DNA from: Candidatus Forterrea multitransposorum CG_2015-17_Forterrea_25_41
Lineage (GTDB): Archaea; Iainarchaeota; Iainarchaeia; Iainarchaeales; CSSED10-239
DNA length: 64,000 bases
Reading direction: 5' to 3'
Assembly: GCA_009392915.1 (NCBI GenBank)
Contig: CP045477.1
Span: 1 to 64,000 of the forward strand
Shown piece by piece: positions 23,626 through 55,328 of this stretch. Position numbers and translations under genes: made by a program. Numbering within the stretch: the stretch's first letter is position 1; each line of letters opens with the position of its first letter. The notes beneath the pieces were generated by a model, which was not told the DNA's origin, searched no databases, and was given only the letters and a program-made list of their open reading frames with translations.

Positions 23626-24737
23626 AATTGTGTTGCATAACTCTTTTTAAAAGTATTGTCTAACCTATTTTATTACTAGATAAAGGAGGTTAGACAATAT
23701 GAATATTAAGAACGAAAAGATTAATAAAAGGAACTGGTCAAAGATAAATTATGGAAAAACAAGACAAATCTTGTTTTTACTAGATAAAAACATTATTTTT
23801 AGTGAAAATGAAAGACTAGTTTCCCAAAATAAAAACAAACCAGGAAGACAATTTATATATAGTGATAGAATAATAGAACTATTAATTGATCTTAAAAATT
23901 ATTTTAAATTTGATTATCGTAAACTACAGGCATTCTGCCTGTTGTTTAATAATGTTATAAAAATAAAAACACCTGACTTTACAACTATTTGTAGAAGAAT
24001 GCACAAATTAGAATTATTTCTAAAAAATATAAAAACAAAAAAAGAACCAACCTTTATAGCTATAGATGGTTCTGGACTTCAAACTACTAATCGAGGAGAA
24101 TGGCTTAGATTAATACACAAAAAAGGAAAAATAAACTTAAGAAATGGATTTGTAAAATTAGTGATTGCAACAGATGTTGCATCTGGAGAAATAACTGGAG
24201 TGTATATTTCAGATGATTCTGATTTTGAAAATAAAAGCTTATCAGATTTATTATACCAAACAATAAATAATCAAAACCAAGAAGTCAAAGGACTTCTTGG
24301 AGATGGGGCATACGATTCTTATGATAACTTTGATATGCTTGATGATATGGGAATAAAACCAATTATCAAAATCAGAAAGAATGCAATTACAACAGAACCT
24401 AATGACGATTATTTAAAAAGAAGAAGAAAACTTGGAAAAAAGAAAAAAATAAAAAGAATTGAAGTTGCAAAAAAGCAACTTAAAAATGTAGATGACTGGA
24501 AACAAAAAAATGAGTATAATAAAAGGTGGGTTGTTGAATACACGTTTAGTGTATTCAAAAGACTATTCGGACATAGTGTGTACTCTAAAAGAAAGAAATA
24601 TGTCAAAAATGAAGTAATTTCTAAAGTAAATTTGTATAATAAATTATTAAATATCAATTAAGAAAAAAATAAAATGAATTAAAAAAAGAAATAAGCTAAA
24701 AATATTGTGTAAAACACAATATTTGTGCAACACAATT
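23626..24737 (+). mobile_element. IS5-family-like insertion sequence
   Basis: Perfect 12-bp terminal inverted repeats aattgtgttgca at 23626-23637 and, reverse-complemented, at 24726-24737, extendable to ~17 bp. They flank a single DDE transposase ORF. Flanking T-rich sequence is consistent with an ~8-bp target duplication (ttttttat). Confidence 0.65.
23699..24661 (+). CDS. DDE transposase (IS5/IS4 superfamily)
   Basis: Catalytic blocks IAIDGSG, LGDGAYDS and VVEYTFSVFKRLFG, the E-containing block typical of IS5-family transposases. Confidence 0.65.
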   Translation: MNIKNEKINKRNWSKINYGKTRQILFLLDKNIIFSENERLVSQNKNKPGRQFIYSDRIIELLIDLKNYFKFDYRKLQAFCLLFNNVIKIKTPDFTTICRRMHKLELFLKNIKTKKEPTFIAIDGSGLQTTNRGEWLRLIHKKGKINLRNGFVKLVIATDVASGEITGVYISDDSDFENKSLSDLLYQTINNQNQEVKGLLGDGAYDSYDNFDMLDDMGIKPIIKIRKNAITTEPNDDYLKRRRKLGKKKKIKRIEVAKKQLKNVDDWKQKNEYNKRWVVEYTFSVFKRLFGHSVYSKRKKYVKNEVISKVNLYNKLLNIN

Positions 24738-24818: not shown

Positions 24819-26192
24819 ATGGCTATAGACAAAAGATTTTTTTTAGGGATAACTATTAGTAAAAAAAGAAAAGCAATTTCTCCTTTAATTGCCACTATTC
24901 TTTTAATAGTTGTTGCCGTTGCAATTATAGCTATTATTGTTTCCTGGGGAAAAGGATTTACCAATGATTCTTTAAGCAAAGCCTCTGGTCTTGAAATTTA
25001 CACTGAATCAGAAACTTCTTTTTACTTGCAAGTAAAAAATTCAATAAACGGAAGAACTGTTGTTCAATATAATCCTCCTTATAATTCTCCTCACACCTCT
25101 TTAACCATAACAGGTTATAGCCTACATGGTAACACGAATATTAATCCCATAGATCCACCAATTACAATAACTGCAAACCAAACTGCAGTTATTGATCATG
25201 GTATTTTATTTCCAGAATTAAATTTAGTTTTATATTTGGATAATGATCGAATGATTATTAAAACTGATCTTTTACAAACTATTAAATCTCCTCTTTCTTG
25301 TCCAGAAGGTTATGTTTCTGTTCCAGGAAACCACTTATATGGAACTATGAATGAAAGTGGGGGTTTTTGTGTTTCAAAATATGAGATGAAAATGGATAGA
25401 ACAGGAGATGGAATAGGAAATCTTGTAGCTGATTATCCTGATTGTAACACCGGTTCTTTAACATATAATACTTATAGTTATGAATTATGCCCTACACCAG
25501 GCACTTTAGTTTCTACTCCAGAAGGTTCTCCCATAGCAAGAATCACACAAACTGAAAGCATATCAGCCTGTGAAGCTATTGGTGGTCATTTAATAACAAA
25601 TAACGAATGGATGACCATTGTACGAAACATAGAACAAGTTCCATCTAATTGGTCAGGTGGAGCAGTTGGTGATGGCTACCTTCCAAGAGGGAATTCATCT
25701 TCTTCAGGAGCTATGGAAGGCTTTGATCAACTTTCAGGAACTACCAAAAGAACCTTGACCTTAACAAACGGAGAGGTAATTTGGGATTTAGCAGGAAATG
25801 TAAGACAATGGACCAGTGACACTATTCAAAGAAAGGACCAGCCTGATGGTTTTAATAATGTAGATGATAGTAATAATACTTCTGGTTTTAATTGGTTTGA
25901 TTATTTTAAGGGCGGTGGAGTAGATCAATATATTTATTCTGATAATTTAGGTAACACCACCTTAAAGTATAAAGATTTATTTTTATTAACTAGTAATACT
26001 TATAATGCAACAGATAATGGTGTTGGAAGGATTTATACTTATAGTGATTTTAGTGATACTAGTACAACTGAGTACGCGTTTTTGCGCGGTGGTCACTGGG
26101 GCAATGGCACTAATGCCGGGGTCTTGCACCTGGTCTTGAACAAGACTCCTGGGTCCCGGAGCATCCTCATCGGCCTGCGCTGTGTCAAGTAG
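24819..26192 (+). CDS. DGR target (variable) protein: pilin-like surface protein with a C-terminal FGE/C-type-lectin-fold domain
   Basis: N-terminal class III signal/archaeal pilin-like segment KKRKAISPLIATILLIVVAVAI. FGE/DUF1566-type motifs GGHLITNNEWMTIV, GNVRQWTSD, and a C-terminal FLRGGHWGNG...GLRCVK coinciding with the VR repeat. Confidence 0.8.
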   Translation: MAIDKRFFLGITISKKRKAISPLIATILLIVVAVAIIAIIVSWGKGFTNDSLSKASGLEIYTESETSFYLQVKNSINGRTVVQYNPPYNSPHTSLTITGYSLHGNTNINPIDPPITITANQTAVIDHGILFPELNLVLYLDNDRMIIKTDLLQTIKSPLSCPEGYVSVPGNHLYGTMNESGGFCVSKYEMKMDRTGDGIGNLVADYPDCNTGSLTYNTYSYELCPTPGTLVSTPEGSPIARITQTESISACEAIGGHLITNNEWMTIVRNIEQVPSNWSGGAVGDGYLPRGNSSSSGAMEGFDQLSGTTKRTLTLTNGEVIWDLAGNVRQWTSDTIQRKDQPDGFNNVDDSNNTSGFNWFDYFKGGGVDQYIYSDNLGNTTLKYKDLFLLTSNTYNATDNGVGRIYTYSDFSDTSTTEYAFLRGGHWGNGTNAGVLHLVLNKTPGSRSILIGLRCVK

Positions 26193-26195
26193 TTT
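26075..26195 (+). repeat. DGR variable repeat (VR) at the 3' end of the target gene
   Basis: The 121-bp GC-rich segment matches 27300-27420 at 108 of 121 positions. 12 of the 13 mismatches correspond to adenines in the other copy. Confidence 0.85.
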
Positions 26196-26498
26196 TTAGA
26201 AAAAATATATTTCATCCCCAAACCATGTATTTAGACGGGTGAGACGGCAAGACGGCCAGACGGAAGAAGCCATGGCAACCTAAACGTTTCAAGATTGTTT
26301 TTGCAAAAAAATGAAAAAACGTATTTGTGAAGTTTTAAAAAAAAGAAATGAGTGTGATTTTTGCAAATTTTTTTGATTTTTTTCAAAAAAATTTGCTAGC
26401 CGTTAAACCAAATGGTTTTTTAATGTAAAAATAATTTTTATAATAATTAAGTTTTAAAGAAAAAATACTTTATATCTTGGACAAACAATGTGATTTAA

Positions 26499-26885
26499 AT
26501 GAGTTTAGTTGGAAATGAAAAAGGAATTCTAAATTTTGGTGTTTACAAGGAGCTTTTCCCAATCGTTATTGAAACTTATAATTTTTTAGAAAATAATAAA
26601 TCTTTATTTAAAGTAGATTTTGTTTATACAGATACTGTTAAAAATTTAATAGATATTCTTTCTTTTCTTTCCAAAGGGTATAATAAATTTCATTCTAATG
26701 AAAAATCTTTACTTTACTCTTATTCAAGAGATTGTGTTTCTACAACCCAATCTAATCTTTTAATATTATCTGAACTTAATAAAGATCTCTCAAAAGAAAA
26801 AACCTTATATTTTTATAATCAATTTGAGGATAAAATAAAGTATTTTAATGGTTTAATAAAAAAGATTGAAGAAAATAAAAACTAG
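26499..26885 (+). CDS. Hypothetical protein located between the DGR target and avd
   Basis: 128-aa ORF of unknown function within the DGR cassette. Confidence 0.3.
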   Translation: MSLVGNEKGILNFGVYKELFPIVIETYNFLENNKSLFKVDFVYTDTVKNLIDILSFLSKGYNKFHSNEKSLLYSYSRDCVSTTQSNLLILSELNKDLSKEKTLYFYNQFEDKIKYFNGLIKKIEENKN

Positions 26886-26896
26886 GGTATATTATT

Positions 26897-27226
26897 ATGT
26901 TATTTGACTTAAAGTTATATAAAGAAACTTATAACTTTTTACTTTATATTTATCCTGAAATAAATAAATTCCCTAAATCAGATAAATATTCTTTAGGAGA
27001 GGATATTAAAAAAACAACTATTTCTTTAATGTCAAATATTGTTCTTTTTTCAAAGCATAATGAAAATACTTTAAAAGAAGCAGATAAAAACTTAGAATTA
27101 CTAAGAATATATATTAGGCTTTCTTTTGATTTAAAAATAATCTCTTTTAAAAAATATGAGGTTATTTCAAGGCAATTAAATGATATTGGTAATTTATTAG
27201 GTGGTCTTTTAAAACAAAAGATTTAA
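26897..27226 (+). CDS. avd: DGR accessory variability determinant (Avd)-like four-helix-bundle protein
   Basis: 109 aa with the pattern FPKSDKYSLGEDIKKTTISLMSNI, reminiscent of the bAvd/23S-rRNA-intervening-sequence protein family. It is positioned immediately upstream of TR. Confidence 0.6.
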   Translation: MLFDLKLYKETYNFLLYIYPEINKFPKSDKYSLGEDIKKTTISLMSNIVLFSKHNENTLKEADKNLELLRIYIRLSFDLKIISFKKYEVISRQLNDIGNLLGGLLKQKI

Positions 27227-27299
27227 ATATTTTTTCAACTAATAGTTATGTTGTTCTTTTAAATAAAAAGAATAGGGCTTTTACAGAAAAAAACAGGTG

Positions 27300-27420
27300 C
27301 GCGTTTTTGCGCGGTGGTAACTGGAACAATGGCACTAATGCCGGGGTCTTGAACCTGAACTTGAACAATACTCCTGGGAACCGGAACAACAACATCGGCC
27401 TGCGCTGTGTCAAGTAGTTT
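27300..27420 (+). repeat. DGR template repeat (TR)
   Basis: Intergenic 121-bp copy of VR, adenine-rich in AAC codons, located between avd and the RT gene. Confidence 0.85.
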
Positions 27421-27422
27421 CT

Positions 27423-27445
27423 CCTTATTATTTTTAATAATAAGG
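27423..27445 (+). other. Perfect 10-bp stem hairpin immediately downstream of TR
   Basis: ccttattatt-ttt-aataataagg. Confidence 0.4.
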
Positions 27446-27678
27446 TTTTATCAGAGTTTGTATGTTTATTTTTTTATCTAAAAAAACATATAAAGCGAAT
27501 ATTTTAAAAAACTACATCTGTAAAATGTTTCCTGATTGCACATAATGTGTGCCATAAGAACTATTTTGTTTTTATGTTAAAAAATCAAATATAAAGATAA
27601 GTTATTACATTTAGTATTTTTATAGTCTGTAAAAAGAAATCTGTAATAACTCTTAACTTTAAATAAGGCTTTTTAAAA

Positions 27679-28695
27679 ATGAAATCATACAATAACCTTT
27701 GGCAAGAATTCACTTCTTTTAAAAATATTTTTAATGCCTATAAAAAAGCAAGAAAGTCCACACCAAACAAAAAGTATATCTTGCAATTTACCACAAATTT
27801 AGAAAAGGAGTTATTCTTATTACAAGATCAATTAATTTCAGAAAATTTTCAATTTTCTCCTTACAGAAGTTTTAAAGTTTATGAACCTAAAGAAAGAACA
27901 ATAAGTGCACCTATTTTCAGGGATGTTGTTGTTCAGCATGCCATAATAAACATTATTGAACCTATTTTTGATAAAACCTTTATAGATAACTCTTTTGCTT
28001 GTAGAAAAGGAAAAGGCACACATAAAGGGCTTTTTGAAATTAAAAAAGTAATTCAAACCCCAAATCATCCAAAATACTATTTAAAACAAGATGTAAAGAA
28101 ATACTTTCCTTCAGTTCATAAACCTACCTTAAAAGAAATAATTTTTAAAAGAATTAAGGATGCAAGATTACTTTCTCTAATATATAAAATAATTGATAGT
28201 TATTCTTTTGATTTAAATCAAATTCAAAAAGGTATCCCTATAGGTAATTTAACCTCTCAGTTGTTTGCAAATATTTATTTAAACCATTTAGATCAGTATG
28301 TTAAGCATTCTTTAAAAATTAAACATTATTATAGATATGTAGATGATTTTTTAATATTTTCAAACAATAAAAGAAAATTACATGTTTTTAGAAGAAAAAT
28401 AAAATTATTTTTAAGTAAAGAACTATTATTAGATGTTCCAAAAAATAAAACTTATATAAACTTAGTAAGTAAAGGAGTTGATTTTTTAGGTTATAAGGTA
28501 TTTCCTTCAAACATAAGATTAAGAAAATCAAATCTTAAAAGATTTCTTCTAAGACAAAATAAAAATAACTTTCTTCTAAAAAAAAATCAAATTTCTAAAC
28601 TTAACTATAATTTTTCTCTTTTTTCTTTTTTAGGTTATGCAAAGCATGCAAACTCTTATAATCTCTTAAGTACTTTAAATATTAATGAGTTATAG
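27679..28695 (+). CDS. DGR reverse transcriptase
   Basis: RT motifs FRDVVVQHAI, the DGR-diagnostic motif 4 PIGNLTSQLFANIYLN (IGxxxSQ), and motif 5 YYRYVDDFLIF (YxDD). 338 aa; adjacent to TR. Confidence 0.85.
   Translation: MKSYNNLWQEFTSFKNIFNAYKKARKSTPNKKYILQFTTNLEKELFLLQDQLISENFQFSPYRSFKVYEPKERTISAPIFRDVVVQHAIINIIEPIFDKTFIDNSFACRKGKGTHKGLFEIKKVIQTPNHPKYYLKQDVKKYFPSVHKPTLKEIIFKRIKDARLLSLIYKIIDSYSFDLNQIQKGIPIGNLTSQLFANIYLNHLDQYVKHSLKIKHYYRYVDDFLIFSNNKRKLHVFRRKIKLFLSKELLLDVPKNKTYINLVSKGVDFLGYKVFPSNIRLRKSNLKRFLLRQNKNNFLLKKNQISKLNYNFSLFSFLGYAKHANSYNLLSTLNINEL
28589..28687 (+). repeat. 99-bp direct repeat, copy 1 (3' end of the RT coding sequence)
   Basis: Near-identical to 30138-30236. Confidence 0.8.
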
Positions 28696-28838: not shown

Positions 28839-30104
28839 ATGGATAAAGCTTTTTTAAGAAACGTTGTTTCTGACCAGTATGAAGATTTAAAAGATGTTTC
28901 AAAAACAATACAAAGATATGATTCAAAAGAAATAGCGCGCTTTGTAAATAATCCTGCTATATCTATAATTTCAGGAGTAAGGCGTTGTGGTAAGTCCACT
29001 TTTTTAGAGCAGATAATAAATTTATATTATAAAAATAACTTTTATTATTTTGATTTTTCTGATGAAAGAATTGCAAAATTTGAAACTGCTGACTTTCAAA
29101 CATTATATGAGGTGTTTTTAGAAAAATTTGGAAAAAGACAGGCTTTTTTCTTTGATGAAATACAAGGAGTTCCAGAATGGAATAAATTTGTTAATAGAAT
29201 GAAAAAGATTGGGCATAAATGTTTTGTAACCGGTTCAAATTCAAATTTGTTAAGTCAAGAAATATCTACTTATCTAACAGGAAGACATATTGATAAAATC
29301 TTATTCCCTTTTTCCTTTAAAGAATATTTAACGTATAAAAATATTAATGTAGATTTAGATTCTACAAAATCAAGAACCTTAATTATTAAAGAGTTTAAAA
29401 ATTACTTTAAAATAGGTGGTTTTCCAGAGGTTGTTTTAACAAACGATACTTCAATTTTATTAAATATTTATTCTGACATAATTTCTAAAGATATAATTGA
29501 AAGATTTAGGATTAATGATGTTTCTTTATTTAAAGAATTTTGTAATTATGTAATTTCTTTATCTACGAATGAATTTACTTTTAAATCATTAAAAGATAAT
29601 TTTAATATTCAGAATATTACTACTGTTTCAAACTATCTTGATTATCTTAAATTAACTTACCTTGTTTATGAAGTTAAAAGATTTTCTTCTTCATTACAAA
29701 AATTAAATAAATATCCAAAAAAATATTATTGTATAGATAATGGTTTATTAAATAAAGTGGGTTTTGGATATTCAATAGAGGAAACTAGATTTTTAGAAAA
29801 TCAAGTTTTTATTGAACTTTGGAGAAATAATCCGCAATCTGAAATTTATTATTATAGAGATAAGGATAATAAAGAATGTGATTTTTTATTGTTAAATGAT
29901 AGAAAAGTAGTTAAGGCTATTCAAGTGTGTTTTGCTTTTAAAAAGATAGATACTAGAAAAAGAGAAATAGAAGGTTTACTATCTGCTTTAAAAGAGTTTA
30001 ATCTAAATTATGGCGAAATTATTACTTTTGAGCATAAAGAAAAATTAAAGATAGATGGAAAAGTAATAGAGATGATTCCTGTATATGAGTGGTTATTAAA
30101 ATAA
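28839..30104 (+). CDS. DUF4143/COG1373-family AAA ATPase
   Basis: Walker A GVRRCGKST, Walker B FFFDEIQ, and a C-terminal DUF4143-like region. 421 aa. Confidence 0.65.
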   Translation: MDKAFLRNVVSDQYEDLKDVSKTIQRYDSKEIARFVNNPAISIISGVRRCGKSTFLEQIINLYYKNNFYYFDFSDERIAKFETADFQTLYEVFLEKFGKRQAFFFDEIQGVPEWNKFVNRMKKIGHKCFVTGSNSNLLSQEISTYLTGRHIDKILFPFSFKEYLTYKNINVDLDSTKSRTLIIKEFKNYFKIGGFPEVVLTNDTSILLNIYSDIISKDIIERFRINDVSLFKEFCNYVISLSTNEFTFKSLKDNFNIQNITTVSNYLDYLKLTYLVYEVKRFSSSLQKLNKYPKKYYCIDNGLLNKVGFGYSIEETRFLENQVFIELWRNNPQSEIYYYRDKDNKECDFLLLNDRKVVKAIQVCFAFKKIDTRKREIEGLLSALKEFNLNYGEIITFEHKEKLKIDGKVIEMIPVYEWLLK

Positions 30105-30137: not shown

Positions 30138-30236
30138 AAATTTCTAAACTTAACTATAATTTTTCTCTTTTTTCTTTTTTAGGTTATGCAAAGCATGCAA
30201 ACTCTTATAATCTCTTAAGTACTTTAAATATTAATG
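30138..30236 (+). repeat. 99-bp direct repeat, copy 2 (intergenic)
   Basis: Near-identical copy of the RT 3' end, downstream of the ATPase gene. Confidence 0.8.
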
Positions 30237-30336: not shown

Positions 30337-30549
30337 ATGAAATATAGAGTTTTAATAGAACAAGACGAAGATGGTATCTTTGTTGCTGAATGCCCTAGTC
30401 TTCCAGGTGCAATTTCTCAAGGAAAAACAAGAGAAGAAGCAATAATAAATATTAAAGAAGCCATAAAAGGTTATCTTGAAAGTTTAAAGATAGCTAATGA
30501 ACCAATTCCTTCTCCAATATCTGAAGAAATAATTGATATTTATGGATAA
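30337..30549 (+). CDS. hicB: HicB-like antitoxin (UPF0150)
   Basis: MKYRVLIEQDEDGIFVAECPSLPGAISQGKTREEA is typical of HicB. It overlaps the downstream hicA. Confidence 0.6.
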   Translation: MKYRVLIEQDEDGIFVAECPSLPGAISQGKTREEAIINIKEAIKGYLESLKIANEPIPSPISEEIIDIYG

Positions 30550-30766
30550 ACTGCCTATTATATCTGGTCAAGATTTAATCAAATTACTTCTAAAATTAGA
30601 TTATCAAGTTCATCATCAAACTGGATCACATATTATCTTAAGACAAAATAAAGAACCTTTTAGAAGATTAACAATTCCAAACCATAAAGAAATTTCAATA
30701 GGGACTTTAAGAGCAATTATAAGGCAAGTTGGAATAACAAGAGAAGAATTTGTTAAATTATTCTAA
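30533..30766 (+). CDS. hicA: HicA-like mRNA interferase toxin
   Basis: YcfA/HicA fold signature with conserved His (QTGSHIILRQ). 77 aa. Confidence 0.6.
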   Translation: MIFMDKLPIISGQDLIKLLLKLDYQVHHQTGSHIILRQNKEPFRRLTIPNHKEISIGTLRAIIRQVGITREEFVKLF

Positions 30767-35786: not shown

Positions 35787-37157
35787 ATGTCTTCAATAAA
35801 TCTTGATAAATCAAAAGTATCAATTTATAGAGATACTAGAAAGAAATTACTTTCTCAAATCAAACCTAGTACTTCTCAAAATATAAAAGAAAAAAGATTT
35901 ATTGATAATGTTATTAAAAAAATAGAAAAGATGCCAGGACCACATTTATCTGCTGTTTGTGCAGGTTCTTTTGGAAAAGGTACTAATTTAAAAGATACAA
36001 AAGATTTTGATGTTTTTGTAATTTATCCTCCTTCTCTTGAAAAAACAAAATTTATTGAAGAAGGTTTAATGTTAGGTCAAAAAGCTTTTAAAGGATATTT
36101 TTGGGAAAAAGCATATTCTCAACATCCTTATATAAGAGGTGTAATTGACGGACATAAAGTTGAAGTTGTGCCTGCATATAAAATAGAACCTAATGAACCT
36201 ATAATTTCTGCAGTTGATAGAACTGTTTTACATTTAATGTTTGTTTTAAAAAATATGTCTGAAACACAAAAAGATGAAACTAGACTTTTAAAATATTTTT
36301 TAAAACAAATAGGGTCTTATGGTGCAGATACTTCTGTATCTGGATTTTCTGGTTATTTATGTGAACTTTTAATTCTATTTTATGGAGATTTTATAACTGT
36401 TTTAGAGAATGCTTCAAATTGGCAATATCCTATAAAATTTACTTTACTTAAAGAACAACATGTTAACTTAGCAAGATTTTCTGAAAGCTTAGTTGTAATT
36501 GATCCTATTGATGATACTAGAAATGTAGCATCTGCTGTAAGTTTAAAACAATTAAGTTTATTTATAGCTTCTTCAAGAAAATTTTTAGAAAATCCTTCTA
36601 TTGATTTCTTTAATACTAAAGTTATTCCAAAAGTTACATATCATCAATTAATAGGGAAACTTGAAAATTTTTCACTAGTAATTGTAAGTTTTGAAGTAAA
36701 AGATATGTTAAAAGAAATTATTTGGTCTAAAGTTAAAAGTAATACTTCAAAGTTAATTACTCATTTAGAATTTTCTGATTTTGATATTTTAAAATATGAA
36801 GTTTATCATAAAGAAGGTCAAGATAGATGTTATCTTGTATTATTATTAAATACTTTAGAACTTCCTAAATTTAAAAAAATTAATGGACCTTTAGTTTCTG
36901 ATTTTAAAAGTTCTCAAAATTATTTAACTAATAATCGTTCTGTACTTGGTCCATATATTAAAGAAGATAGATGGTATGTTGTAAGAAAAAGAGATAAAAC
37001 TTCTGCAAAGGCAATAATTTTAGATTTCTCACAAGTCTTTAATTTAAAATCTAAGATTTATTCTGGAACAGAGATCAATGATTTATTTTTAGAAGATGAT
37101 GACTTATCTGAATATTTAACTGATTTTTTTATTACTAAAGAGAAATTTTTAATTTAA
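35787..37157 (+). CDS. cca: Archaeal class I CCA-adding enzyme (tRNA nucleotidyltransferase)
   Basis: GSFGKGTNLKDTKDFDVFV nucleotidyltransferase motif and typical ~450-aa length. Confidence 0.75.
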   Translation: MSSINLDKSKVSIYRDTRKKLLSQIKPSTSQNIKEKRFIDNVIKKIEKMPGPHLSAVCAGSFGKGTNLKDTKDFDVFVIYPPSLEKTKFIEEGLMLGQKAFKGYFWEKAYSQHPYIRGVIDGHKVEVVPAYKIEPNEPIISAVDRTVLHLMFVLKNMSETQKDETRLLKYFLKQIGSYGADTSVSGFSGYLCELLILFYGDFITVLENASNWQYPIKFTLLKEQHVNLARFSESLVVIDPIDDTRNVASAVSLKQLSLFIASSRKFLENPSIDFFNTKVIPKVTYHQLIGKLENFSLVIVSFEVKDMLKEIIWSKVKSNTSKLITHLEFSDFDILKYEVYHKEGQDRCYLVLLLNTLELPKFKKINGPLVSDFKSSQNYLTNNRSVLGPYIKEDRWYVVRKRDKTSAKAIILDFSQVFNLKSKIYSGTEINDLFLEDDDLSEYLTDFFITKEKFLI

Positions 37158-37617: not shown

Positions 37618-37699
37618 GCAGAGGTGGCGGAGTGGTCAAACGCGCCAGCCTTGAGAGCTGGAGCCTTGCGCTACACGAGTTCGAATCTCGTCCTCTGCG
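37618..37699 (+). tRNA. tRNA-Ser (anticodon TGA), type II with long variable arm
   Basis: Acceptor gcagagg/cctctgc, anticodon stem ccagc/gctgg with loop cttgaga, T-loop ttcgaat. No encoded CCA. Confidence 0.8.
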
Positions 37700-37730
37700 C
37701 TTTATCTTTTAAAATATAGGAATTTTTATT

Positions 37731-38063
37731 ATGATTAAAGAAAACATTTCTTTTCAAGATTTTTTAAAACTTGATATAAGAATTGGAACAATTGTTGAGG
37801 CTGAAGCTGTTGAGGGTTCTGATAAATTAATAAAATTAATAATTGATTTTAAAGATTTTAAAAGACAGATTTTAGCTGGTATTAAAACAAAATATCAACC
37901 AACTGATTTATTAAACAAACAAATTCCTGTTATTGTAAATTTAGAACCTAGAAAAATGATGGGTTTTGAAAGTCAAGGAATGATCTTAGCTGTTGGAGAT
38001 AAAACTTTAGATGCTTTACTTTTACCATCTGAGCCTGTATCGGAAGGCTCGATTGTACACTAA
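37731..38063 (+). CDS. tRNA-binding domain protein (Trbp111/CsaA/EMAP-like)
   Basis: LDIRIGTIVEAEAVEGSDKLIKL OB-fold tRNA-binding signature. 110 aa. Confidence 0.65.
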   Translation: MIKENISFQDFLKLDIRIGTIVEAEAVEGSDKLIKLIIDFKDFKRQILAGIKTKYQPTDLLNKQIPVIVNLEPRKMMGFESQGMILAVGDKTLDALLLPSEPVSEGSIVH

Positions 38064-38084
38064 TTTTTTTTTAAAACTAAAAAT

Positions 38085-38166
38085 GCAGAGGTGGCGGAGT
38101 GGTCAAACGCGCAAGCCTGGAAAGCTTGAGCCTCGTGCTACGCGAGTTCGAATCTCGTCCTCTGCG
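38085..38166 (+). tRNA. tRNA-Ser (anticodon GGA)
   Basis: Same scaffold as the upstream tRNA-Ser; anticodon loop ctggaaa. Confidence 0.8.
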
Positions 38167-38197
38167 CTTTTTTCTTTTTTAATTTAATATTTATTTT

Positions 38198-38286
38198 GCA
38201 GAGATGGCGGAGTGGTCAAACGCACAAGTTTCGAAAACTTGATTAAGGTTTTTTCCTTTACATGAGTTCAAATCTCATTCTCTGCG
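38198..38286 (+). tRNA. tRNA-Ser (anticodon CGA)
   Basis: Acceptor gcagaga/tctctgc, anticodon loop ttcgaaa, long variable arm, T-loop ttcaaat. Confidence 0.75.
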
Positions 38287-38462
38287 TAGCTGGTTTCGGT
38301 CAGCTAGCACCCAATGATTTTGCGTTTGTTAACGCTTATTTAAACTTTCTTTTTAAAAGAAGTGATTTTCCCCCAAAACTTTTTTTCTTTAAAAATTGTG
38401 TTTTAAAAATTTTTAATCTATTTTATATCTATTTAAAATACTTTTGCCTCTCTTTAATATTT

Positions 38463-55211: not shown

Positions 55212-55328
55212 GTTAGCGGCCATAGGGATGGAGAAACACCTGGACCCTTTCCGAACCCAGAAGTTAAGTCTATTGCCGTTTTAGTTCGCTGTTAGTTCAT
55301 GCTAGTAGCGTCTTTAAAGCTGCTAACA
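55212..55328 (+). rRNA. 5S rRNA (divergent, unlinked to 16S/23S)
   Basis: 5' gcggccatag...ccgaacccagaagttaag conserved 5S blocks. Terminal helix ttagcggc/gctgctaa with one G·U pair. The middle/3' part is AT-rich and atypical. Confidence 0.55.

Follow-up and report, generated by a model that had tools for sequence, protein, structure and literature searches.

A chromosomal diversity-generating retroelement of an AT-rich DPANN-type archaeon that very probably rewrites a pilin-like C-type lectin, and the variable-repeat side of its single non-adenine difference

The best reference point for diversity-generating retroelements (DGRs) considered here is the mtd-avd-TR-brt element of Bordetella phage BPP-1, in which a template repeat (TR) is copied by a reverse transcriptase (RT) into a variable repeat (VR) of a target gene. 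DGRs have also been described in Nanoarchaeota and other DPANN archaea (PMC4372165; AvpA, PMC5006420; clade 5, PMC8144416), and further comparisons are offered by the variable protein TaqVP of Thermus aquaticus and by Bacteroides DGRs that act on the tip adhesins of type V pili (bioRxiv 10.1101/2024.11.15.621889). Here, we analyse a stretch of 64,000 nt from Candidatus Forterrea multitransposorum (contig CP045477.1, positions 1–64,000 of the forward strand; hereafter, the window), which carries on the plus strand, in this order, a target gene, an Avd-like gene, avd, a TR and an RT gene. With high confidence, we regard this cassette as a chromosomal DGR of an AT-rich DPANN-type archaeon that rewrites the VR of a pilin-like protein with a C-type-lectin (C-lectin) fold, and the single T-to-G difference between its two repeats as a change on the VR side rather than decay of the template.

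The locus shares with the BPP-1 element the gene order target, avd, TR and RT, full-length RT homology, the [I/V/L]GxxxSQ motif of the RT, an Avd four-helix bundle, a TR of ~120 nt rich in AAC codons, a VR at the C-terminus of a C-lectin-fold protein and adenine specificity. Unlike BPP-1, it resides on an archaeal chromosome rather than in a phage, its target is a pilin-like protein rather than a tail-fibre protein, and a second Avd-like gene is present; furthermore, the difference between the initiation of mutagenic homing site and its TR counterpart (IMH/IMH*) and the GC-rich inverted repeat after the VR are both lacking, with a fourfold direct-repeat array in place of the latter. With the DGRs of Nanoarchaeota and other DPANN archaea, the locus has in common an archaeal host of the ultra-small-genome type, a groundwater-type habitat, a target of the formylglycine-generating enzyme (FGE) subclass of C-lectins, small basic open reading frames (ORFs) between target and RT and more than one DGR per genome. 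The published Nanoarchaeota DGRs contain a TGGGGT/TGGAAT IMH pair and, within the target gene, a hairpin with a GRA loop (PMC4372165), neither of which is found here, and the targets of archaeal clade 5 typically have no recognizable transmembrane or other domain (Roux et al. 2021, PMC8144416), unlike the present target with its recognizable pilin N-terminus.

The evidence begins with a gap-free direct repeat of 124 nt (repeat family D1; ungapped alignment), the two copies of which, at 26072–26195 and 27297–27420, are offset by 1225 nt and 89% identical. The first copy, the VR, consists of the final 39 codons of the target gene, its stop codon and three more nucleotides; the second, the TR, is non-coding. 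Read in the frame of the target gene (ORF 24819–26192), the TR gives AFLRGGNWNNGTNAGVLNLNLNNTPGNRNNNIGLRCVK, and the VR is translated as AFLRGGHWGNGTNAGVLHLVLNKTPGSRSILIGLRCVK. The last 121 nt of the TR (27300–27420) contain 30 adenines and, in the target frame, nine AAC and three AAT codons. When this segment is aligned with 26075–26195, 13 of the 121 positions differ, and 12 of the differences fall on TR adenines (27319, 27325, 27326, 27352, 27358, 27359, 27379, 27380, 27386, 27389, 27391 and 27392), at which the VR has four C, four G and four T. Given that adenines occupy 25% of the positions, the probability of at least 12 of 13 mismatches hitting them is 8.1e-8 (hypergeometric). Eight of the nine AAC codons are altered in the VR, at codon positions 1–2, and encode H, G, H, V, S, S, I and L, whereas two of the three AAT codons are intact and the third is altered at its T only (AAT to AAG, N to K), this being the lone non-adenine mismatch (TR T27369 versus VR G26144). 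A preliminary description, prepared from the letters of the window and a list of its ORFs, had reported this offset, the same 13 differences at the same coordinates, both translations and the codon tabulation, all of which our re-alignment reproduced exactly. Its approximate figure for substituted TR adenines, about 12 of roughly 30, turned out to be precisely 12/30; the flanking scaffold (GLRCVK and FLRGG) is unchanged between TR and VR, as it had maintained, and a scatter of mismatches over all four TR bases, which it had named as the outcome that would speak against adenine specificity, is not what we observed.

In the window allele, all 12 adenine changes lie within AAC codons and none in the 12 remaining adenines (Fisher P=3e-4). 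Given that adenines of AAT, ACT and ATC codons are altered in other VR alleles, this restriction is no mechanistic limit. Outside the 121-nt range, the 124-nt repeat has one extra mismatch at its 5' end (26074 A, 27299 G), which is best read, on the alignment, as the end of homology. No third copy of the repeat was detected on either strand of the 64-kb window. The G+C content of the repeat is 51–58%, compared to the window average of ~24%, and a target paralogue described below encodes the same protein scaffold with AT-rich codons, indicating that the high G+C belongs to the DGR repeat and not to the protein. Mismatches in related cassettes are exclusively at adenines (20/20, 16/16, 17/17 and 17/17). 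The published criteria for DGR detection permit up to two non-A mismatches per 100 bp (PMC4372165), and the VR/TR pair of the window, with one, is inside this limit.

The genes of the cassette agree with the repeats. The RT gene (27679–28695, plus strand) encodes a 338-aa protein that matches RVT_1 (E=1.5e-21) and PHROG 1423 (E=2e-112) and aligns over its full length with bRT of the Bordetella phage (8ub7_A; phmmer E=3.7e-54), with group II intron RTs far behind (E=1e-22). Its motif GIPIGNLTSQLFAN aligns with GIPIGSLTSQLFAN of bRT (IGNLTSQ versus IGSLTSQ), that is, the RT has the [I/V/L]GxxxSQ signature of the DGR clade in place of QGxxxSP. The avd gene (accessory variability determinant; 26897–27226, plus strand; 109 aa) is recognized by NCBIfam NF033474 DivGenRetAVD at 92.4 bits (cut-off 80), by Pfam bAvd (E=2e-21) and by the PHROG 'Avd protein of DGR' (E=4e-24). 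The identification of the locus as a DGR in the preliminary description is thus borne out: the adenine-rich copy lies just upstream of an RT with the DGR motif, Avd scores above the NCBIfam equivalog cut-off and the VR is the in-frame 3' end of a gene.

The 128-aa ORF at 26499–26885 (plus strand) is a second, divergent Avd-like gene, for a four-helix bundle. The protein itself has no Pfam, NCBIfam or PHROG match; however, 8 of the 19 members of its family match PF05635, the four-helix-bundle family that contains Avd (best E=3e-8). Its AlphaFold2 model (pLDDT 90) consists of four helices, and the top Foldseek matches are 2gsc and 2rld, from the family of 23S rRNA intervening sequence proteins, and Avd in 8ub7_E and 4dwl, with template modelling scores (target) of 0.73–0.85. 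In all intact relatives, the distant L139 and L140 among them, this gene immediately precedes avd. The Pfam hits of the relatives, the four-helix model and the fixed place upstream of avd jointly mark this ORF as Avd-like, so that the cassette holds two genes of the Avd superfamily.

The target gene (24819–26192, plus strand) encodes 457 aa with a predicted pilin-like N-terminus, a beta-sandwich and an FGE-type C-lectin domain that ends in the VR. The N-terminus matches TIGR02537, the archaellin/type IV pilin N-terminal domain (24.1 bits; cut-off 20), and includes a class-III-signal/pilin-like helix at ~aa 17–55; a type IV pilin of Pyrobaculum (8fk7) is matched by the protein in phmmer and by its N-terminal part in Foldseek. 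In the AlphaFold2 model (pLDDT 88.8), an N-terminal helix (aa 22–55) is followed by the beta-sandwich and a large C-terminal domain, for which the top Foldseek matches are TaqVP (5vf4, E=6e-10), FGE structures and Mtd (1yu0), consistent with the Pfam FGE-sulfatase hit of the protein (E=7e-7). The VR is, according to this model, carried on a C-lectin fold, as the preliminary description had proposed. TaqVP, the best structural match, is likewise a DGR variable protein of the FGE-like C-lectin fold, but the identity is only 16–18% and TaqVP has no pilin-like N-terminal module. By virtue of the N-terminal class III signal region and the hydrophobic alpha-1 helix, the target can be described as archaeal type IV pilin/archaellin-like, and the hypervariable lectin is probably displayed on a type-IV-pilus-like filament. 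Similarly, in the Bacteroides DGRs an adhesive filament subunit is diversified; the filament assembly is putative in our case, the bacterial type V and archaeal type-IV-like pili are unrelated, and the hosts belong to different domains of life.

Two groups of homologues of the target came to light. A 47%-identical pilin-lectin paralogue (P0044), on the same contig but outside the window and with no DGR nearby (L133:7001–8338), has the C-terminal scaffold ..MRGG...GFRCVK in AT-rich codons. It was considered as a remote target of the DGR and rejected, because its AT-rich C-terminus has no similarity to the TR and there is no RT close by. In four other proteins (P0109, P0111, P0118 and P0119), ~44% identical to the lectin part, the archaeal pilin N-terminus is replaced by the bacterial pilin N-methylation motif PF07963. 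These may come from bacteria of the candidate phyla radiation; if so, a single variable module would be fused in bacteria and in archaea to the pilin anchor appropriate to each domain of life. At two distant target loci (L137 and L138), one contig stops within the target and the other has a target without an adjoining DGR.

The cis elements of the cassette depart from the familiar pattern. The two repeats end in 26 identical nucleotides, a stretch that takes in the stop codon and the GC-rich ATCGGCCTGCGCTGTGT, and beyond TAGTTT they diverge completely; hence, no IMH/IMH* difference is found in this pair. Downstream of the VR there is no GC-rich inverted repeat or stable hairpin, the DNA fold of 26186–26300 being no better than that of shuffled sequences (z=+1.15). 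Instead, an array of four direct repeats of ~8 nt with an AGACGG core (26233–26267, plus strand) starts 42 nt past the target stop, as detected by pattern search and by Tandem Repeats Finder (period 8, score 38; spacing of the repeats 8–9). The pattern GACGGN{3,4}GACGG has three overlapping matches, all within the array, and none elsewhere in the 64 kb, with 0 expected. The array is conserved at both cassettes of two species (four related cassettes) and is missing where the cassette has been deleted (L126, L128 and L129). A distant DGR (L140), in which 17/17 mismatches are A-specific, has a fourfold array of another sequence, AATCTGG, in the same place (L140:3944–3974). The AGACGG array is a candidate VR-side cis element, which could mark the target site or regulate the downstream operon. 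On the template side, the 258-nt spacer between TR and RT (27421–27678, plus strand), presumed to be the 3' part of the DGR RNA, has a mean identity of 86% across four cassettes versus 76–80% for their proteins. It forms a predicted hairpin directly 3' of the TR (stem 27423–27429/27439–27445) and further conserved helices; the RNAalifold consensus includes six pairs changed on both sides, a weak signal, from four sequences only. Rfam matches in the whole window are limited to three tRNAs and 5S rRNA, with none in the cassette.

Evidence on the activity of the element comes from its alleles. The exact RT protein is encoded on at least 22 contigs, and we compared six of them (L001–L006; four JGI and two ENA samples), 12.6–15 kb of which align to ~23.6–38.7 kb of the window. 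Their identity to the window is 99.8–99.99%, and a single TR sequence is common to the six contigs (6/6), whereas the VR occurs in three alleles. L004 has the VR of the window; L001, L002 and L005 differ from it by one base, 26112 A to T, at a TR-adenine site; the contig of L006 starts at 26138, within the VR. Between L003 and the window there are 26 differences, of which 18 are concentrated within the 124-nt VR and 8 are spread over the remaining ~14 kb; 15 of the 18 VR sites correspond to adenines of the window TR (hereafter, TR_A) and two more to adenines present only in TR_B, the template of a second cassette discussed below. The same three VR alleles recur in the protein collection, on 14, 4 and 11 contigs, the last number being that of the L003 type. 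One unvarying TR and several versions of the VR in nearly clonal surroundings are what an active or very recently active DGR would be expected to leave behind, and the DGR thus appears, from these sequences, to be in one of these two states. Outside the VR, most of the variation among the six near-identical contigs is a cluster of single-nucleotide polymorphisms at 36066–36950, in the gene for the CCA-adding enzyme. Otherwise identical VR alleles that differ by a single base were encountered twice, both times at TR-adenine sites: 26112 A/T in the window locus, and G/C in the AAC-derived codon GTC/CTC of the second cassette (L134:6335 region). The chance of both differences falling on A sites is ~0.06, and their source may be homing or repair over short patches instead of random mutation.

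The possibility that the element is a fossil, the VR of which now evolves by ordinary mutation only, finds some support in the 3' end of the RT gene, which has been disrupted and rebuilt by an insertion. The last part of the RT gene is duplicated exactly over 99 nt (28589–28687 and 30138–30236), and the two copies flank a gene for an AAA_14/DUF4143 ATPase (28839–30104); the second copy runs on into ancestral downstream sequence, aligning with the insertion-free relative L131. The duplication and this alignment indicate that the ATPase segment was inserted into the last RT codons, changing the C-terminus from ..NINGFIV* to ..NINEL*. The fossil reading could also draw on the dead cassettes of related genomes (L128 and L129), in which the VR is fused to the downstream flank of the TR and the RT is truncated, and on the presence of just three alleles, two of them 1 nt apart. 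Nevertheless, we consider it improbable: the five genes are intact, the RT matches bRT over its full length, and the two more distant alleles differ at 18 of 124 VR positions against 8 in the other ~14 kb, with 15 of the 18 at TR_A adenines. Moreover, the window allele contains three TR_A-specific bases and so was written after TR_A had gained them; despite the insertion at the 3' end of the RT, this allele matches its own TR and not the paralogous one.

The non-adenine difference at 26144 (VR G, plus strand; T27369 in the TR) can be placed with the help of the same alleles. The preliminary description had suggested population sequences as a means to distinguish a rare non-A event, if the position varied, from drift of the TR, if it were fixed. 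The position does vary, all window-type alleles (the window, L001, L002, L004 and L005) sharing G26144 and the L003-type VR having T, and the drift option failed, because the codon is AAT in every TR examined: TR_A in six assemblies, TR_B in four, those of L131 and L132 (a second species) and that of the distant L026, amounting to five distinct TRs. All related VRs also keep T at the corresponding position. With AAT in all TRs and T in the alternative VR, the G must have arisen on the VR side against a stable template base, and its presence in every window-type allele points to one event. Template drift, under which the VR would retain an old template base, has in its favour that TRs do change, TR_A and TR_B differing at three internal positions, and that the 'non-A' mismatches of the sister VR allele are explained by a different TR sequence; at this codon, however, an ancestral TR with G or A at 27369 would need parallel changes to T in all of the lineages listed, which makes this explanation very unlikely.

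As to how the VR-side change came about, a rare non-adenine error during reverse transcription or integration of the cDNA has, in our estimate, about an even chance, and a later point mutation giving Lys is a serious possibility too, if somewhat short of even. Lys cannot be reached by adenine mutagenesis of AAT, and selection could favour it. At a background divergence of 0.05%, ~0.05 changes are expected in the 91 non-A sites, and this is the only unexplained non-A difference in six VR/TR pairs of this DGR family. This rate of one in six pairs agrees with the upper bounds of misincorporation by bRT-Avd per site, which are 0.5% for U, 0.3% for C and 1.6% for G, near the assay baseline (PMC7826257). 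In a curated survey, 23% of 372 DGRs had at least one non-A-to-N difference (PMC5758913); together with the detection criteria of two per 100 bp, this share makes the T-to-G difference ordinary under either origin.

A second, paralogous DGR (locus B, with the window cassette as locus A) lies outside the window but shares with the window genes both the 839,632-nt contig and the NCBI assembly (GW776_00835 versus GW776_05680). Its order is Lon, lactamases, a 453-aa target, an Avd-like gene, Avd, TR_B, a 343-aa RT and PheRS, as read from the DNA of L130 (6001–9848), L134, L135 and L136. Identity to the window proteins is 80% for the target, 79% for Avd and 76% for the RT. In one sample (L136:7033–7361), the locus-B avd is split into ORFs of 58 and 37 aa by an apparent frameshift. 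TR_B is 92% identical to TR_A (10 differences in 121 nt) with identical GC-rich flanking segments, and inside the mutagenized core the two differ at three sites only: 27333 and 27342, each with A in TR_B and C in TR_A, and 27355, with T in TR_B and C in TR_A.

These three sites account for the sister allele. Compared with its own TR_A, the L003-type VR (L003:1475–1598) has 19 mismatches, three of which are non-A and synonymous (GGC to GGG, GCC to GCG and CTG to TTG), and these three are exactly the core differences between TR_A and TR_B; compared with TR_B, 18 of 18 mismatches are at adenines. Three or more such non-A changes at background divergence have P ~1.5e-5, and the chance of three hits on those three among the 50 non-A core positions is ~5e-5. 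The flanks of this VR are still of the locus-A type, CGCGTTTTTGCGCGG ... GTCAAGTAG. A TR_B-type core within locus-A flanks means that locus B supplied the information for the core of this locus-A VR, through either homing of TR_B cDNA in trans or gene conversion with VR_B as donor. Of 15 co-mutated bases, the L003-type VR_A has 12 in common with the VR_B found in its own genome, and 11 of 15 in common with that of L130 (P=0.08, given the strong A-to-G bias), which is suggestive of gene conversion but not significant. That the two paralogous cassettes are cross-compatible, such that one template can be written into the VR of the other and non-A mismatches are footprints of template choice rather than polymerase error, is a proposal we put forward tentatively, as possible though rather less than probable.

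The existence in the same genome of a TR_B so similar to TR_A raises the question whether TR_B, and not the adjacent TR, was the template of the window VR, too. This VR has 16 mismatches with TR_B, two of them non-A (CTG versus TTG, and T-to-G), compared to 13 and one with TR_A, and its diagnostic sites read GGC, GCC and CTG, which are the three TR_A-specific bases and identify TR_A as its template; a TR_B origin of this allele accordingly has little to recommend it. Finally, an ordinary segmental duplication or gene-conversion tract with a coincidental adenine bias, for which the mere existence of a direct repeat is the sole support, can be set aside in view of the adenine bias (P=8e-8) and its recurrence in five further cassettes, of RT and Avd beside and between the repeats, and of a repeat G+C twice that of the surroundings while the non-DGR target paralogue uses AT-rich codons for the same scaffold.

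Five points nonetheless weigh against our interpretation of the locus as a working DGR with a VR-side T-to-G change. The ATPase insertion altered the C-terminal residues of the RT, which may be impaired; activity is judged from assembled consensus alleles only, three in number; VR and TR, identical over their final 26 nt, lack the classical IMH/IMH* distinction; without a downstream inverted repeat, the discrimination between VR and TR is not explained by the textbook model; and the assemblies do not separate an origin of G26144 at the time of retrohoming from a later one. With respect to the cis elements, identical IMH and IMH* are known for some DGRs (Wu et al., PMC5758913), and the downstream inverted repeat of BPP-1 enhances homing but is not essential (PMC5758913). 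Because both the IMH/IMH* asymmetry and the inverted repeat are known to vary, DGR membership of the locus is not lowered by their absence.

By analogy with the Bordetella phage paradigm, TR and spacer would be transcribed, and the RT together with Avd, and probably also with the second Avd-like protein, would copy the TR RNA into cDNA with misincorporation opposite template adenines. This cDNA would then take the place of the VR in the 3'-terminal part of the gene for the pilin-like C-lectin, so that 8–12 AAY-encoded residues of the ligand-binding surface would be re-randomized. The 12 A-to-N differences between the window repeats would be the record of the last homing from the adjacent TR.

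The genes that flank the cassette are archaeal, encoding a Ski2-type helicase, a proteasome beta subunit and the CCA-adding enzyme, and the close relatives are labelled Ca. (I)ainarchaeum, of a DPANN lineage, the label being that of the submitters. A scan of genome contigs with the RT retrieved two hits only, an unrelated RT of Legionella and L126, which is labelled Ca. [I]ainarchaeum sp. and has an RT with 78% identity. Among the matches listed in a scan of metagenome DNA with the 17-nt anchor GCGTTTTTGCGCGGTGG, only L026 was a real relative, the others being due to chance. In L126 (5582–5700), L128 and L129 (7258–7380), the sequence found elsewhere just 3' of the TR (TAGTTTCTCCTTATT...) comes immediately after a diversified VR, and the Avd-like gene, avd and TR are missing; the RT is cut to 142 aa in L128/L129, across which the VR-fusion unit is tandemly duplicated. 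This fusion is either a VR/TR recombination that killed the element or, for L126, an assembly collapse. Just upstream of the window target lies an IS5-family transposase gene (23699–24661), where several public contigs end, and downstream of the ATPase gene there is a HicB/HicA toxin-antitoxin pair (30337–30766); the related species (L131) has neither of them at its syntenic locus. Further along the window are three tRNA-Ser genes (TGA, GGA and CGA) within 670 nt (37618–38287), the first two ~91% identical, and a 5S rRNA gene (55212–55328).

DGRs of DPANN archaea and Nanoarchaeota from groundwater have already been published and the contigs are public; the exact lineage may have a prior description. 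The DGR signature itself is clean and will not surprise a specialist; what makes the locus valuable is the good resolution of a natural example, in which several VR alleles of one archaeal DGR are seen in otherwise clonal surroundings. The modest novelty comes from four features: a target with a pilin-like anchor, two Avd paralogues in tandem, the array of direct repeats and traces of templating between cassettes. With its two Avd genes, and with direct repeats in place of a hairpin and an IMH/IMH* difference, the cassette points to a variant solution for target recognition. If the TR_B cDNA was indeed homed in trans, target recognition must use cis elements shared by the two cassettes, for which the fourfold array, conserved after each VR, is the obvious candidate, possibly recognized by one or the other of the two Avd-like proteins. 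For the interpretation of DGRs, 'non-A' VR/TR mismatches need not be polymerase errors: one of those described here is a VR-side change against a stable template, and the three in the sister allele fit a second template in the same genome. For the organism, the pilin-like anchor suggests a hypervariable lectin on a surface filament of an episymbiotic archaeon.

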